From Escherichia phage JM10, in sequence record PP400777: a DNA stretch of 64,000 bases, one strand, 5' to 3'. Positions 40,984-60,738 of this stretch are shown here, piece by piece. How positions within the stretch are numbered: position 1 is the first letter of the stretch; each line of letters starts with the position of its first letter. The notes beneath the pieces were generated by a model, which was given only the letters and a program-made list of their open reading frames with translations, was not told the DNA's origin and made no database searches. The position numbers and the translations under genes were made by a program.

Positions 40984-41454
40984 TTAATCATGTTTCCACA
41001 CCCCATCAGTATTTGACCAAAGTCGCTGATTATCTGATCCTCGCCACAGCTTTTTAGTCGGAAGATTTTTCTCATACTTCCCATCAATAATAACATCAAC
41101 ATATTTAAGCATTTCTAGTTGTTTAATATCTTCAAACTTATATCCTGTCCACAACCAAATGCTTTTATTTGGATAAAGATTTTTAATAGTTTGAACCACA
41201 GAGTGAATCACATCTCTGTTATCAGGATAGAGAGGGTCACCTCCGGTTATAGTCAATCCTTCTATATAATCATTATTCAAACATTCAATTAATTGTTCTA
41301 GTGTTTCACCAGTGAATGGAATACCATTTCTAGCATTCCATGTTGATTTATTATAACACCCTTCGCATTTATGCAAACAACCTGTGACGAAAAGAACGAC
41401 CCTGCAACCAGGGCCATTCACAAAATCGCAAGGATAAAATCTATCATAATTCAT
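40984..41454 (-). CDS. nrdG: anaerobic ribonucleotide reductase activating protein NrdG (radical SAM)
   Basis: 156 aa; CDFVNGPGCRVVLFVTGCLHKCEGCYN. Confidence 0.9.
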   Translation of the reverse strand: MNYDRFYPCDFVNGPGCRVVLFVTGCLHKCEGCYNKSTWNARNGIPFTGETLEQLIECLNNDYIEGLTITGGDPLYPDNRDVIHSVVQTIKNLYPNKSIWLWTGYKFEDIKQLEMLKYVDVIIDGKYEKNLPTKKLWRGSDNQRLWSNTDGVWKHD

Positions 41455-42756
41455 TGGTGTTTAACCCTATGCATGATTTCTTTATTTTTACCAAGATTAA
41501 ATCCGCGTTCGTTCGGATTTCCCAAATAACCGCATGTTCTTCTTATGGTGTTCATCTTTTTAGGATCACTTTCTCCACAAACTGAACAAACAAATCCGTT
41601 TTCAGTAGGAGTCATTTCATGGGTACTTCCACATGTAAAACATTTATCTACTGGCATATTAACACCAAAATAATCTAAATGTTGTGCAGCATAATCCCAG
41701 ACAGCCTCAAGTCCCTTTAAATTGTTTTTCATATCTGGAAGTTCAACATAAGAAATGTGACCACCTGTCGCAATGAAATGATATGGCGCTTCACGAGAAA
41801 TCTTTTCAAACGGAGTAATATTTTCTTCTACTGAAACATGGAAACTGTTAGTGTACCAGCCTTTATCGGTGACATCCTTTACACTTCCATATTTTTCTGT
41901 ATCAAGTTTACAGAAGCGATAACAAAGGTTTTCAGCAGGAGTAGAATATAAACTAAAAGCAAATCCAGTTCTTTCAGACCACTGTTTAAGATGAGCATTC
42001 ATTTTAGTTAAAATTTCTTGTCCAATATCACGACCGACAAGAATATTCAATTCGTGAATACCGATGTATCCCAAAGACACTGAACTTCTACCGTTTTTAA
42101 ATAACTCAATTATGTCGTCATCAGGTTTAAGACGAACCCCGAATGCACCTTCTTGGTAAAGAATAGGAGCTACAGTTGCTTTAACACCCTTTAAAGAACT
42201 AATTCTACACATCAAGGCTTCAAAACACAGATCCATTCGTTCATTAAATAGCTCAACAAATTTCTGTTCATTGAACTGTGTTCCAATATAAGAATCTAAC
42301 GCAATACGAGGAAGATTCAATGTTACAACACCAAGATTATTACGTCCGTCAAGAATTTCATTTCCAGTTGAATCTTTCCATACACTCAAGAAACTACGAC
42401 AGCCCATTGGAGAAACTGGAACTGAAGAACCAGTAATAGCTTTATTATTCTTAGCTGAAATAATATCAGGATACATCCTTTTGCTTGCGCACTCTAAAGC
42501 AAGTTGCTTAATGTCGTAATTCGGATCGTCTTTATAAAGATTAACGCCTTCTTCAACGAACATAACAAGCTTAGGGAAAATAGGAGTTATCCCATCACGT
42601 CCAAGACCTTTAATACGATTTTTCAGAATTGCTTTCTGAATCATTCGTTCGGTCCAGTCAGTTCCCGTACCAAATGTAATTGTTACAAAAGGAGTCTGTC
42701 CGTTTGAACTGAAAAGTGTATTTACTTCATCATTATATTCAGCATGAGTCGCAAAT
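41451..42756 (-). CDS. nrdD: anaerobic ribonucleotide reductase NrdD, exon 2 (5' boundary approximate)
   Basis: C-terminal zinc ribbon CFTCGSTHE...CSVCG and glycyl-radical region; ends KNKEIMHRVKHQ; upstream exon separated by about 1 kb. Confidence 0.8.
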
Positions 42757-43527
42757 TCATGCCCGTTTATATGAAACAACAAAATTTGGATAGTCCATAG
42801 ATATGCAACGTTCTTTTATAGTGCTAGGATGAAAATTTAGCGCTTTAGCTGCTTCTATATAAGACGTATACTTAATACCGTCAACAACCACATATTCAGG
42901 AACTTTATGAATAGTAGTCTTAATACTCAAAACAAGAGGATGAGTTTCGACTTCACTTTCAGTGCAATTTAAATATTCCGCTGCTTTTTTAAAACTTCTA
43001 AAAGTTTTATTTTTAAGCTTTATCGATACTTGTTTTTTACTTTTTCGACTATTGATATTATTTTGCACATGTTCCTTAGATCTTCCGTTTTTAGCATAAT
43101 ATTCAGCTACAGAAGATTTTATATTGTTTTTATGAGATTCGGATAACACTTTACCCTTATGAGCATCTCTTAATTTTTGAATATGTTCTTCAGTATCCGG
43201 ATGCTTATAAAACTTTTTACCGCCTATGGATTTATTTAAACATTTTTTGCTATAAAAATATTTACGTATGACCTCTTCTTCATGTTTTAATGCATCTTTA
43301 TAACTATCAAATGTTTTTAAAATTATCCATTTAGTAGGTGTATCAGTTTTTAAGCGTTCATTTATATACTTAGATGACGTTGTGTAAGTTTTCCAGTTTG
43401 TGGGCTTGTTTTTAATTGTTCTAAATTTTTTATAACCGATATAAATGTCGCCATTAGAAAACTTAACTAAGTATGTAAATGCGTCTTTATCTTTTATTTT
43501 AGTACAACGTCTTTTTATCCATTTCAT
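42757..43527 (-). CDS. intron-encoded GIY-YIG homing endonuclease (I-TevII-like)
   Basis: 256 aa; DAFTYLVKFSNGDIYIGYKK (GIY-YIG); NUMOD3-like AHKGKVLSESHKNNI; inside the nrdD intron. Confidence 0.75.
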   Translation of the reverse strand: MKWIKRRCTKIKDKDAFTYLVKFSNGDIYIGYKKFRTIKNKPTNWKTYTTSSKYINERLKTDTPTKWIILKTFDSYKDALKHEEEVIRKYFYSKKCLNKSIGGKKFYKHPDTEEHIQKLRDAHKGKVLSESHKNNIKSSVAEYYAKNGRSKEHVQNNINSRKSKKQVSIKLKNKTFRSFKKAAEYLNCTESEVETHPLVLSIKTTIHKVPEYVVVDGIKYTSYIEAAKALNFHPSTIKERCISMDYPNFVVSYKRA

Positions 43528-43790
43528 TGTTTCACCTCGTATTCATAAGATAATCTTATTTATACAAGATGACTGCTGCATGTCGCCATGCAGATTAGAC
43601 TATATCTTCATCTTTCGATGCCGGCCGTTTCGAATAGCATTAGCTTCTATTCTACACCGCTACATTCATCACGGTTAGTCGTTAGGCATTTAGTTCAAAA
43701 GAACATTTAGCACGGGATTGTCTACTAGAGAGGTTCCCCGTTTAGACCGGTTTTACATGAGCCTGAATTAAATTAACTCATACGCCTGGA
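42757..43790 (-). mobile_element. group I self-splicing intron interrupting nrdD (boundaries approximate)
   Basis: NrdD reading frame broken between 42782 and 43768; intron RNA contains CUAAACGGGGAACCUCUCUAGUAGACAAUCCCGUGCUAAAU, recalled as T4 nrdD (sunY) intron core. Confidence 0.75.
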
Positions 43791-44313
43791 ATGCATCGTA
43801 TACATCTTTTTCTGTTTTAGATTGAGCATAATTCAACGCATCAGCGATTTGCCATTTTTCTGCATCCTCAATATGTTTTGCATAGGTGCGTTTAACATAA
43901 GGAGAAAGAACTTTATCTACATTCGCAAATGTAGTTCCGCCATACTGGTGTGAAGCAACTTGTGCGGTAATTTGTGCCATAATTGCAGTAGCAACACCAA
44001 TAGATTTAGGCGTTTCAATTTGAGCATTGCCTAATTTAAATCCATTCTCAAGCATCCCCTTTAAATCGACTAAACAGCAATTGGTAAACGGAAGAGCAGG
44101 AGAATAATCAATATCATGCATGTGAATGATTCCACTTTCATGCGCATTCATAATAAAAGACGGGACCATATTTTTGGCAATGTGCTTAGACACAATACCA
44201 GCCATAAGGTCCCGTTGAGTTGGAAAAACACGAGAATCTTTATTAGCATTCTCGTTTAAAAGATCTTTATTAGTTTTATGAATCAGTCCTTCAATTTCTT
44301 TTTCAATTTTCAT
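43768..44313 (-). CDS. nrdD: anaerobic ribonucleotide reductase NrdD, exon 1 (3' boundary approximate)
   Basis: 181-aa ORF ending inside the intron; exon 1 plus exon 2 total about 605 aa. Confidence 0.8.
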   Translation of the reverse strand: MKIEKEIEGLIHKTNKDLLNENANKDSRVFPTQRDLMAGIVSKHIAKNMVPSFIMNAHESGIIHMHDIDYSPALPFTNCCLVDLKGMLENGFKLGNAQIETPKSIGVATAIMAQITAQVASHQYGGTTFANVDKVLSPYVKRTYAKHIEDAEKWQIADALNYAQSKTEKDVYDAFQAYELI

Positions 44314-57373: not shown

Positions 57374-57637
57374 GTATTTTTCCTCAGGTCGAAATACTGC
57401 ACGACATGCCCACATGCTGGCTTCTTTTAGATGTTGCTTAGCATACTTAAGAGCCTGCACTGCATCCATATCTTCTTTGGTTTGTTGCTCTGTTTCATTT
57501 TCTTTCAAGATATATGCTTCTTCAATCAGAGCATCAAACAACAATCCAAGACGGACTTCGGCATCTTTAATAGCGTTCACTTTACCGATTTTATCATCGG
57601 TATGCGGCTTGTAGCCTTTGATGTCTTCAATCGACAT
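57374..57637 (-). CDS. hypothetical protein (start adjusted to MSIEDIKGYK)
   Basis: Track ORF 57371..57805 overlaps next ORF. Confidence 0.4.
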
Positions 57638-57851
57638 AAGGAATTTCCTCATCAGTGGCAAGGTCATATTCGACCAATTGGATAGGCTCATTAATACCAT
57701 ATCCACGTACAGTGATATCAGTTGACGGATATTTTCCAGTAATATCACCCGTTCTAAATGCTTCAATGAATGATTGCTCGCCTGAGCAACTAAACCAGGC
57801 GGCAAAACATTTTAAAACATCTTCAGACCCTTCTATAATCAATTTAGCCAT
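57627..57851 (-). CDS. hypothetical protein, 74 aa
   Basis: ORF track. Confidence 0.45.
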   Translation of the reverse strand: MAKLIIEGSEDVLKCFAAWFSCSGEQSFIEAFRTGDITGKYPSTDITVRGYGINEPIQLVEYDLATDEEIPYVD

Positions 57852-58213
57852 TATAGACTCTCAGTAAAGGTACGAGCGATAACGTCGCGCTGCTGTTCCG
57901 GAGTCAGAGAGTTAAAGCGAACTGCATAACCGGATACACGGATGGTCAGCTGCGGATATTTTTCCGGATGCTTAACTGCATCTTCCAGAGTTTCACGACG
58001 CAGAACGTTAACGTTCAGATGTTGACCACCTTCAATTTTAACTTTAGGTTGATGTTCAATTTCAATTTCACGGGCATGCAAACCGTAGAAAATTTCCGGG
58101 TCTACAATAGCGTCTTCTTTAAAAGTCTTAGAGACAATAATCCGGGCTTGAGTACCGTCTTCAAAATAAATAGTGCCTTTATGCGCACCTTCAAGAATTT
58201 GATATGCTTTCAT
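57851..58213 (-). CDS. autonomous glycyl radical cofactor (GrcA/YfiD-like)
   Basis: 120 aa; C-terminal half [59 protein letters not shown] recalled as essentially identical to E. coli GrcA, including RVSGY. Confidence 0.8.
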
Positions 58214-58219
58214 ATAACC

Positions 58220-58528
58220 TCAATTAGAAAATAAATTTATCCAAGTTTTTTCTTTAATCAAAAATGGGTCGGAATTAAACGCCATTAAACTTTGAGTGAT
58301 TAATCCCTTAAATGGCCCATCAATAAATTCCATTTTGAAATGCGGAATACTAGTCATCAACCGTGCATTAGGAGCAGTACAAAGAACCTGCTGCCCTGCG
58401 AACGGACCTTTAGTCAAACGATATCGTTTAGGTTTAAAATGGTAAATCTCGTAATTTTCTACAAGAGCCCTTTTATTGCATACTGGGCTGTTATAACAAT
58501 ATTCAAAAACTTCAATAGTGGTCATCAT
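58220..58528 (-). CDS. hypothetical protein (start adjusted to MMTTIEVF)
   Basis: Track ORF 58220..58591. Confidence 0.4.
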   Translation of the reverse strand: MMTTIEVFEYCYNSPVCNKRALVENYEIYHFKPKRYRLTKGPFAGQQVLCTAPNARLMTSIPHFKMEFIDGPFKGLITQSLMAFNSDPFLIKEKTWINLFSN

Positions 58529-59064
58529 TGCATTCCAATCACAAAAAATTGAGGACGAGCAATACCGCCGATGCAATATTTGCTTTTGCAACAGTGTTGG
58601 ACTGTTTTAATATGGACATTGTAAATCTTATCCATATCAGGAGCTTTAATAGGCTCGTCAATTATGTACAGAATACGAGAAAGCGTTAATCCACGGAATT
58701 TAGAACCTTCATTGCCAATAAAACTACGAACAGAATCAGTAAATAAACGGAATCGAATATCATCGCTAGAATAACGAGAAAATTCTTTTTTAATGTTGCC
58801 AGCAGAAATTTTAGCATAAGCTGAAGTATTAGAAAGAACAATAACAGTTCCGCCATCATACAACCAATTAGCAGCGAAGTTAGTCACAGCAATTGATTTA
58901 CCTGATTGTCTGCCGCCGTCTAAACGAAGTGTACAGTACTGCTTGAGTACATCTTCAAATGGTGGGACATAACCGTTCTTACAAATTTCTTCTACTCTAG
59001 CATCAGAATGGTGTGTAAAAGCATTCATCAGGGATAGATAAGGTCCAGTTAAAAATGTTCTCAT
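58525..59064 (-). CDS. P-loop NTPase, 179 aa
   Basis: Walker A DGGRQSGKS; Walker B ILYIIDEP. Confidence 0.55.
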   Translation of the reverse strand: MRTFLTGPYLSLMNAFTHHSDARVEEICKNGYVPPFEDVLKQYCTLRLDGGRQSGKSIAVTNFAANWLYDGGTVIVLSNTSAYAKISAGNIKKEFSRYSSDDIRFRLFTDSVRSFIGNEGSKFRGLTLSRILYIIDEPIKAPDMDKIYNVHIKTVQHCCKSKYCIGGIARPQFFVIGMQ

Positions 59065-59177
59065 TTAGTTTCTCTTTTAGGTTGGGCCATTCCGTGGCGC
59101 ATGAATTGTCCATTTCTGTATTTACCCCTCCAAGTAATTATGAATATACTATCACAATTCTAGGAGAAAGTAAACTG

Positions 59178-59480
59178 TTATTTACCTTTAATTACTTTAG
59201 CTGCTTCGATAGCCGCTTGCTGAAGGTCATCCATAGACATACCGAATTTAGAAGCAAAGTTATCAATTTTCTTTTCGACAGCATTCAAAGGCTTTGCCTG
59301 TTTACCTTCATTAGCGCCAGGAAGAGCGAGAATACGCTCTTTGTCAATATAAAGGCTTACAAGTTTCTTACGGTCTTTATCGGACAAATCATGAAATGAA
59401 TGGGCCTTTTTATTTATAGCGGCTTCTAATTTACCTGCACTCACTCGCGCTTCAGTAATAAATTCTTGATAGGTTTTCAT
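59178..59480 (-). CDS. internal protein (IPII-like) with capsid-targeting N-terminus
   Basis: 100 aa; starts MKTYQEFITEA. Confidence 0.7.
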   Translation of the reverse strand: MKTYQEFITEARVSAGKLEAAINKKAHSFHDLSDKDRKKLVSLYIDKERILALPGANEGKQAKPLNAVEKKIDNFASKFGMSMDDLQQAAIEAAKVIKGK

Positions 59481-59541: not shown

Positions 59542-59804
59542 TTAAGCTTTACCGCCAGAAATAATTCCGAAGTTGTTAAAATCATATCCAATATCGTCAA
59601 CATCTACTTTAGGACTTGCTACAACATAAGCAATTTCACTACGTTTTGCATAGGTGTTTTGATTTCTTTACCATCGCCACCTAAGAAAGAATACCCATTA
59701 CGTTTTAATGAGCCAAAGTCTTCCGCATCACCAATGAAAGCTTTAACTTTAAATTTAGGACCTTTGGCATCTGCTTCAACGATAAATTCTTGATACATTT
59801 TCAT
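59542..59804 (-). pseudogene. internal-protein paralog interrupted by an apparent frameshift
   Basis: 61-aa ORF begins MKMYQEFIVEA and stops at 59619; an adjacent frame is open from 59667 to 59542 (RNQNTYAKRSEIAYVVASPKVDVDDIGYDFNNFGIISGGKA); A/T runs near 59643-59660. Confidence 0.4.
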
Positions 59805-59971
59805 TTTTCCTTAGTAAATTGATTTACCAAAGTATTTGTACCAAGTCGGGCGTTGAGCAATTTTTTATCTAAGCGTGCTTGACTTATCGCAATGGACGCT
59901 TCGGACGGGTCATAATTTCCTCCAAGTAGTTGATGAATGTATAGTATCAAAACCCTTGGAGGAAGTAAACA

Positions 59972-60253
59972 CTATTTTTCTGAAGCGCCTGAAATATATT
60001 TTTCAAGACGTTGTTTCATCAGCGAGCCGTTCTTAGCAATTTCTTCCGGTTTATCGCACATACGCAACAAGGCTTCAAGCTTAACGATATCACTGGTGCG
60101 CTCAAATTTGCGAGTATCTATCTTACTAGCAAGTTCAGAAATACGTGCTAATAGACTTTCAGCTTCAACCAAAGCTGCACCTAGCTTAGTTGCAAATGTG
60201 TCAGTAGCTTCGTTAAGAATAGATTCTGATAAAAATTCACTATATGTTTTCAT
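59972..60253 (-). CDS. internal protein (IPIII-position) with capsid-targeting N-terminus (start at [11 protein letters not shown])
   Basis: MKTYSEFL; synteny adjacent to e. Confidence 0.6.
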
Positions 60254-60738
60254 ATATACGCTTTCCAAGTTCCTGTTTTAAATGTTGAGATTACGCGTTT
60301 CGCGCGATTAGGTGTCTGACGATACCATTTAGATTGGGCTAGATTTACTGCCGCCTCGTCCCAACGTTTCTGTTGAAGCATACGAAGAGAATTAGTAAAA
60401 CCGGCGACGCCTGCTACACCCATTTGGAAGACCATATTGACCAATGCACATCGACGAACCGCATCTAAAGAATCATATACCGGTTTAAGTTTAGCATTAC
60501 CCAAGATTCCGCGAACGGCTTTATCAACGTCTTCATTAAATAGCTTTTCAGCCTCATCAAGGGTAATTGTACCGTTGCATTTACGACCGATAATTCTGTC
60601 AAGTTCAGCTTTAGCTACGGCTAAAGACGGGTTCTTTGTTACTAAATGGCCTATGCCAATCGTCCAAAAGCCTTCAGTGTCTTTATATAAAGTCAGTCTA
60701 AGACCTTCGTCATTACGAAGCATTTCAAATATATTCAT
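60250..60738 (-). CDS. e: lysozyme (endolysin), start at MNIFEML
   Basis: [31 protein letters not shown]...[29 protein letters not shown] matches T4 lysozyme from memory. Confidence 0.95.

Follow-up and report, generated by a model that had tools for sequence, protein, structure and literature searches.

The question raised by one short open reading frame (ORF) of Escherichia phage JM10 is why the two halves of a single phage gene differ so sharply in their likeness to a gene of the host. The ORF occupies positions 57851..58213 (minus strand) of a stretch of 64,000 nucleotides (nt) from sequence record PP400777, referred to below as the window. It runs from ATG to TAA, encodes 120 amino acids, and is the counterpart of T4 vs.6, whose product Y06I is a stand-alone glycyl-radical 'spare part' protein. 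Very probably, the JM10 ORF is an ortholog of vs.6 that encodes an autonomous glycyl-radical cofactor for host pyruvate formate-lyase (PFL), and the DNA of its radical domain was overwritten by the host gene grcA, with at least two host donors across the phages that carry it.

The encoded protein has one Pfam domain, Gly_radical (PF01228, residues 60-101, E=2e-18), and no second domain. Its best match to a solved structure, found with HMMER, aligns residues 21-120 with E. coli GrcA (PDB 6OWR, E=1.8e-42), and pyruvate formate-lyase comes next. BLASTP against E. coli GrcA gives 74 identities in 100 positions. A preliminary description, made from the letters of the window, had matched the C-terminal 58 residues, including RVSGYAVRF, to GrcA; the identical block is in fact 60 residues long, E61-L120, and equals GrcA 68-127 at 100% identity. 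The PFL-type radical motif RVSGYAV is present with the radical glycine, in the same context as GrcA G102 and PflB G734. By alignment with these two residues, the radical roles of which are documented in PMC12338860, the predicted radical site is Gly95 (codon at 57929..57931, minus strand). The glycyl-radical domain is also identical to PflB 697-760 at 49 of 64 positions (77%). The assignment to GrcA stands on both points where it could have failed, as the radical glycine is kept and the similarity is close, not distant.

At the nucleotide level, the ORF is a mosaic. The host-derived tract covers ORF nt 179-353 (57861..58035, minus strand), encodes the glycyl-radical domain I60-T117, and is identical to E. 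coli grcA nt 200-374 at 174 of 175 positions. The longest exact run is 158 nt (57861-58018), and the sole mismatch is a CAC>CAT change at 58019. Just upstream of the junction, ORF nt 120-179 match E. coli grcA at 31 of 60 positions, so that at the 5' breakpoint identity drops from 174/175 to about 52% over the space of a few bases. The tract starts at the point where the phage and host genes become alignable (EGGQH), and it ends a few codons before the stop. What follows is a phage-type 3' end, GAG AGT CTA TAA (57851..57860, minus strand), with three synonymous differences from E. coli that are common to the Slopekvirus and Pseudotevenvirus copies. The preliminary description had proposed a recent acquisition of the host C-terminal module and suggested a nucleotide alignment with grcA as the check. 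This alignment, with its near-perfect tract and sharp 5' breakpoint, bears the proposal out.

The remaining 5' part of the gene, ORF nt 1-178 (58036..58213, minus strand), is of phage type and homologous to, though diverged from, the N-terminal region of GrcA. The N-terminal half had been described as different from GrcA. It is divergent, as claimed, but it is not unrelated, for the alignments to hidden Markov models reach residues 18-21, and residues 18-120 align to positions 23-126 of TIGR04365. A shared protein stretch shows that this N-terminal part (N-part) is common to the Tequatrovirus, Mosigvirus, Jiaodavirus, Slopekvirus, Pseudotevenvirus, and Karamvirus copies. Because the N-part is homologous to GrcA and is kept across phage genera, the structure of the gene points to a partial replacement within an old phage gene and not to a domain fusion. 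A host module fused to a phage peptide of unrelated origin is ruled out on the same grounds.

Transfer ran from host to phage, as the E. coli allele runs on unbroken into its own N-part and takes its place in the enterobacterial series, and as the G+C content of the tract (0.49) departs from that of the N-part (0.36) and of the window overall (0.37). When the last 186 nt of the ORF are compared with 5426 complete E. coli genomes, all of these carry grcA at 96.8-97.8% identity and none at 100%. Over the same 186 nt, E. coli grcA is matched at 181 positions by the phage, at 172 by Citrobacter amalonaticus, and at about 160-166 by most other Enterobacterales. Constraint on the protein cannot account for the identity between phage and E. 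coli, since the bacterial orthologs are less alike (172/186 versus 181/186). The sharp breakpoint marks the tract as an import from the host into an older phage homolog by partial replacement, in which homologous recombination overwrote the glycyl-radical-domain DNA of the phage gene with host grcA (gene conversion).

High identity to E. coli would also result if misassembly or contamination had merged host reads into a phage contig, and nothing else speaks for such an artefact. The tract lies in frame within a conserved phage ORF and has phage-type sequence on both sides. About 630 independent phage records share it, the T4 reference among them, and it is set apart from all 5426 E. coli genomes by a fixed difference. 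These records and this difference refute the artefact, and its probability is negligible.

The tract occurs in two types among phages. The records with an E. coli-type tract, about 630 in number, match E. coli grcA nt 200-384 at 96-99.5%, and 138 phage records match Klebsiella pneumoniae grcA at 90-97% with the same boundaries (nt 199/202-374). Donors were sought among 190 bacterial grcA alleles, of which 81 came from a GTDB genome scan (among the matches listed); a metagenome pattern scan for alleles other than that of E. coli supplied the others. Cronobacter grcA, the host gene of phage leE, is not part of this set. One allele, present on 10 contigs, has a protein product identical to GRCA_KLEP7 of K. 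pneumoniae. All identities that follow are counted over a 171-nt core of the tract. The window and T4 both match E. coli grcA at 170 positions and K. pneumoniae grcA at 149, and Mosigvirus RPN187 matches them at 171 and 150, respectively. The Jiaodaviruses, a group of Klebsiella phages, show the reverse. Their matches to E. coli and K. pneumoniae grcA are 151 and 166 in PSE-D1, 149 and 165 in 15882-3, 145 and 161 in AM_K2, 146 and 160 in KpV477, 147 and 160 in Ra_O-1, and 140 and 153 in PKO111. K. pneumoniae grcA is the best match of the 190 bacterial alleles for all six. On the same scale, E. coli and K. pneumoniae agree at 150 positions, K. pneumoniae and the K. oxytoca type at 158, and E. 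coli and Citrobacter at 158. Among the 81 listed genome-scan alleles, which had no K. pneumoniae, the Jiaodavirus match is at most 87%. The Jiaodavirus tract also has the Klebsiella-type LLDAVEH in place of LEDAVKH, and its G+C content at third codon positions (GC3) is 0.58-0.63 versus 0.20-0.25 in the N-part. At least two donors are needed, with Escherichia grcA supplying Tequatrovirus and Mosigvirus, and K. pneumoniae grcA supplying Jiaodavirus.

The Jiaodavirus copies also bear on the possibility that strong nucleotide-level selection, through codon usage or mRNA structure, has kept a gene acquired once and long ago close to the host sequence. Across Enterobacterales, the amino acid sequence of the domain hardly varies, which constrains the first and second codon positions, and grcA is abundantly expressed in E. 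coli. However, bacterial orthologs under the same constraint differ from E. coli at 13-29 of the 171 core positions, and copies in other phage genera differ at 26-35. Selection of this kind also fits poorly with the abrupt loss of identity at the 5' breakpoint, with the GC3 jump between the two halves of one ORF, and with Jiaodavirus copies that follow the synonymous states of K. pneumoniae and not those of E. coli. This explanation is extremely improbable.

The host on which a phage was isolated does not always agree with its tract. PSE-D1 is a Jiaodavirus isolated on Salmonella, and its tract is of K. pneumoniae type, with 166 of 171 positions identical to K. pneumoniae and 147 to Salmonella. 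Ra_O-1 is named as a Raoultella phage, and its tract is likewise of K. pneumoniae type (160/171). Judging by these alleles, the tract reflects the usual host of the phage lineage and not the isolation host. GrcA-like proteins are also found in unrelated phages, namely T5-like siphoviruses (T5 320-688, beside tRNA genes) and the Krischvirus or RB49 type (JEP8 267-683). The tracts of these T5-type and Krischvirus copies are about 72-79% identical to bacterial grcA, and the copies look older or independently acquired, without recent conversion. Two bacterial records with unusual labels came up as well. In Klebsiella sp. WOUb02, grcA, normally a chromosomal gene, lies on the 275-kb 'plasmid' NZ_CP170105.1. 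Record NZ_JBQPOM010000029.1, labelled Vagococcus sp. WN89Y, has an enterobacterial grcA whose protein is 91% identical to E. coli GrcA and falls in the K. pneumoniae GrcA 90% cluster; this is probably contamination or mislabelling.

The age of the tract can be judged against its surroundings. Segments of the vs.7-vs.6-vs.5-vs.4 block are 95-100% identical to RPN187, phiC120, and MM02, and 56-80% identical to T4-type Tequatrovirus flanks. The tract is 97-99.4% identical to both the Mosig-type and the T4-type phages compared. A sliding 90-nt comparison with T4 has its 97-100% peak exactly over the tract, while the aligned flanks range from about 40% to 97% and lie mostly at 55-90%. Between the window and T4, 19 of 179 N-part positions and 2 of 172 tract positions differ (Fisher p=1.5e-4); counted at third codon positions alone, the differences are 13 of 59 and 3 of 60 (p=0.007). 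These comparisons indicate that, among phages of E. coli, the tract is far younger than the phage DNA around it.

Whether such a young tract stems from one event or from many is a separate matter. Each E. coli-phage allele is 0-1 change away from the E. coli sequence, and the phage-specific changes are not shared. At the 3' end, different phages have differing mixes of E. coli-type and phage-type states, and the last three sense codons vary among E. coli-phage alleles, with GAA AGT TTG in T4, GAG AGC CTG in OES_C-2, and GAG AGC CTA in RPN187. The alleles favour repeated or continuing host conversion over a single import. The chances are about even that the 3' half of vs.6 is kept in step with host grcA by recurrent recombination between the infecting T-even genome and the chromosome. 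Under such recurrence, a first import would give about 175 bp of near-perfect homology, and later infections could re-convert the tract to the type of the circulating host lineage.

A single or ancient import into one phage lineage, after which the tract spread among co-infecting T4-like phages with no ongoing host conversion, is a less probable but serious alternative. T4-like genomes are mosaic, and the window itself is a Mosigvirus-type vs.7-vs.4 block in a Tequatrovirus backbone. All E. coli-phage alleles have one 5' junction, and some tract variants are common to several phages, such as the CAT codon in the window, phiC120, MM02, and FL23. Inside Jiaodavirus, AM_K2 and PKO111 differ at 10 of 59 third positions in the N-part and at 12 of 60 in the tract. 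Divergence of the two parts is therefore alike within this genus and fits one import before the genus radiated; independent conversions within Jiaodavirus were considered and are unsupported for the same reason. A single import does not by itself provide two donors, Escherichia and K. pneumoniae, and both are required. The island of near-identity between T4-type and Mosig-type phages also coincides with the host-homologous tract and not with arbitrary phage-phage boundaries, and spread from one imported copy does not agree with alleles that stay so close to E. coli and have no phage-specific changes in common. The G10400 tract has variants at positions 303 and 357 that also occur in Escherichia alleles, and both are C>T, so this evidence is weak.

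As for function, the T4 ortholog provides the precedent. PMC8683613, citing Wagner et al. 2001 (BBRC 285:456), states that YfiD and T4 Y06I restore oxygen-cleaved PFL after PFL-AE has installed the radical. YfiD and Y06I are still the only two validated spare-part proteins according to PMC8683613. PMC12338860 describes radical transfer from GrcA G102 to PflB C419 and also cites Wagner et al. 2001 for PflB repair by Y06I. By analogy, the host activase PflA (PFL-AE) would install the radical on Gly95 of the JM10 protein, which would then dock on host PFL whose C-terminal radical domain had been cut by oxygen at Gly734. The phage protein would supply the missing domain and restore the reaction that turns pyruvate into acetyl-CoA and formate while infection proceeds under microaerobic or fluctuating oxygen. 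What the phage would gain is a continued anaerobic energy supply.

The window also encodes a class III ribonucleotide reductase, NrdD, and its activase, NrdG, as the preliminary description had noted. The nrdG gene lies at 40984..41454 (minus strand; Pfam Fer4_12 and Radical_SAM), and nrdD at 41451..44313 (minus strand) is split by an insertion into ORFs 43768-44313 and 41451-42782, with Pfam NRDD positions 1-141 and 145-562, respectively. These genes are given as context. The protein had been proposed to repair either NrdD or host PflB, and the two partners fare differently. PflB repair is what PMC8683613 and PMC12338860 report for T4 Y06I, and NrdD does not suit a domain of PFL type.

In the NrdD alternative, the JM10 protein would replace the oxygen-cleaved radical domain of NrdD and would be activated by phage NrdG. 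The two genes are about 14-17 kb away in the window, Nolan et al. 2006 (PMC1524935) suggested, from the Pfam domain in common, that vs.6 might act in nucleotide metabolism, and PMC8683613 speculates on spare parts for other glycyl-radical enzymes. BLASTP of the protein against the NrdD of the window, however, finds no significant similarity (best E=6). The radical loop of this NrdD is RRTCGYLGNP, preceded by the Cys-rich motifs CFTCG...CSVCG, and it is unlike RVSGYAVRF; the JM10 protein has neither an NrdD-type loop (RxCGY) nor a likeness to the NrdD C-terminus. Its domain matches the PflB tail at 77% identity and host GrcA at 100%, and its DNA is copied from the PFL-specific cofactor of the host. 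PFL is the only validated partner of T4 Y06I (PMC8683613). A spare part for phage NrdD is rejected on sequence and is very unlikely. A link between the two enzymes could be metabolic, since formate is the reductant of class III ribonucleotide reductases (PMC4493059).

The ORF is the ortholog of T4 vs.6 (Y06I) by sequence and position, and the gene and its function are already known. The preliminary description had recognised a GrcA-type protein with a described T4 homolog, and this proved right. T4 Vs.6 and the JM10 protein have the same length, are identical at 113 of 120 residues (94%), and are similar over the full length (120/120). A tblastn search with T4 proteins finds the same vs.7 and vs.5 neighbours and a position in the tk-vs-regB-e region as in T4. 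Both copies have RVSGYAVRF, and in both the 3' tract is E. coli-like and shares one 5' junction. The seven amino acid changes comprise six in the N-part and R73H, which is private to T4. The JM10 allele differs from that of T4 in being of Mosigvirus type (EDAIV...HQPKV), with flanks about 56-80% identical to T4. The copy of Escherichia phage FL23 is 99.4% identical to the ORF. RefSeq annotates T4 vs.6 as 'autonomous glycyl radical cofactor GrcA', and near-identical copies of the ORF are already annotated as GrcA in GenBank. In the comparison by Nolan et al. 2006 (PMC1524935), vs.6 is one of a few ORFs kept in all T4-like genomes. The phage proteins form a separate family, with a match to PHROG 1209 over the full length.

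Compared with E. coli GrcA (YfiD), the JM10 protein is likewise a stand-alone polypeptide of about 14 kDa in the same fold family, with PflA and PflB as presumed partners. In contrast, its N-terminal 59 residues are only weakly similar, it is seven residues shorter, and its gene lies in a lytic phage among small phage ORFs, whereas grcA adjoins ung in E. coli. The C-terminal radical domain of PflB (697-760; PDB 1H16 and 2PFL), with its G734 motif, is the piece that the spare part replaces. Unlike PflB, the phage protein is a separate polypeptide with its own N-terminal domain, and it lacks the catalytic barrel and Cys418/419.

Several points weigh against the reading as a whole. Host tracking is not universal, as none of the 190 alleles is a near-identical donor (at most 86%) for the Slopekvirus, Pseudotevenvirus, Karamvirus, Krischvirus, or T5-type copies. 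Tequatroviruses isolated on Serratia and Yersinia carry an E. coli-type tract (96.8-97.8%). The variable 3' junction rests on three or four synonymous sites, and the 5' junction is the same in all alleles. Repeated host-to-phage conversion is not separable from one import per donor followed by short-patch spread between phages. The NCBIfam equivalog model for GrcA, TIGR04365, scores the JM10 protein at 158.6 bits, under the 170-bit cutoff, and E. coli GrcA at 233.9; the low score is attributed to the divergent N-part. PFL rescue by the JM10 protein is a function transferred by analogy from the T4 ortholog at 94% identity. The further step, in which PFL upkeep could supply formate to phage NrdD for anaerobic deoxynucleoside triphosphate synthesis, is plausible.

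The local setting of the ORF is one of small phage ORFs. The vs.7 homolog (58223-58528, minus strand) is its upstream neighbour, and the ATG of the vs.5 homolog (57627-57851, minus strand) overlaps its stop codon as TAATG. By inspection of the sequence, a Shine-Dalgarno-like GAGG (58218..58221, minus strand) lies 4 nt 5' of the ATG, just past the vs.7 homolog stop. A consensus scan for promoters and terminators around the ORF gave 7 matches, versus 8.0 expected from shuffled sequence, and no dedicated promoter above chance. The ORF is probably co-transcribed with vs.7, because no separate promoter exceeds chance level.

The window is an inter-genus mosaic. The block at about 57400-58780 is of Mosigvirus type, and the region from 30000 to 54000 is of Tequatrovirus type, with 30-54 kb being 96-97% identical to Tequatrovirus genomes. 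Between the N-terminal (43768-44313) and C-terminal (41451-42782) ORFs of nrdD lies a homing-endonuclease-like ORF of the GIY-YIG/NUMOD1 type (42757-43527). The arrangement resembles the T4 nrdD intron with I-TevIII. Scanned with Rfam at gathering thresholds, the whole window gave no match, not to a group I intron at the split nrdD either, and ARAGORN found no tRNA in it.

Further genes lie upstream of the vs.7 homolog. The vs.8 homolog (58528-59126, minus strand) matches T4 Vs.8 in two pieces in different frames (amino acids 18-35 and 38-219), and its longest ORF has 179 amino acids versus 219 in T4, so there may be a frameshift or truncation near its N-terminus. Of denV (endonuclease V), only a C-terminal remnant is present, which covers amino acids 96-137 in two reading frames at 59814-59938 (minus strand), and intact denV appears to be absent at this locus. 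The gene order is vs.8, ipII, remnant, and e in the window, and vs.8, denV, ipII, ipIII, and e in T4. Three small ORFs at 59178-59480, 59619-59804, and 59972-60268 (minus strand) have the N-termini MKTYQEFI, MKMYQEFI, and MKTYSEFL at or near the listed start, and in the third the motif follows a five-residue extension initiated by TTG. The first of them is 94% identical to T4 IpII. Their common N-terminus resembles the sequence that targets T4 internal proteins to the capsid, and the three ORFs may thus belong to a variable set of internal-protein genes.

Among described cases, psbA/psbD of cyanophages is the nearest evolutionary analog of the mosaic. Host-phage recombination in these genes was reportedly also treated by Zeidner et al. 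in 2005. They are phage copies of host metabolic genes with patchy G+C content, they exchange segments with host alleles, and they cluster by host range, as is similarly the case for vs.6. Sullivan et al. 2006 (PMC1484495) describe them as host-derived auxiliary metabolic genes with host-phage intragenic recombination. In vs.6, by contrast, the exchange is confined to a single tract of about 175 nt with sharp limits and near-identity to the host gene, and it concerns another protein family, enterobacterial T-even phages, and two host genera that gave DNA to sister phage genera. No description of a nucleotide-level vs.6/grcA mosaic was found in the literature searched; key older papers lie outside that search, so novelty is unproven. 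The mosaic is an evolutionary footnote on a known gene, and is apparently undescribed.

The gene itself is nothing new, and the point of interest is the evolutionary pattern of a tract that tracks the host. The pattern would also tie PFL maintenance to the formate-dependent NrdD that the phage would use at low oxygen. If conversion is ongoing, the tract would be a natural marker of the host lineage in which a T4-like phage recently replicated, and a tractable system for measuring recombination between a virulent phage and the host chromosome. The auxiliary metabolic gene would then be kept compatible with PflA and PflB by copying, and not by selection on point mutations. If it is true, recurrent conversion would be a natural example, open to measurement, of a lytic phage gene and a host gene evolving in concert.

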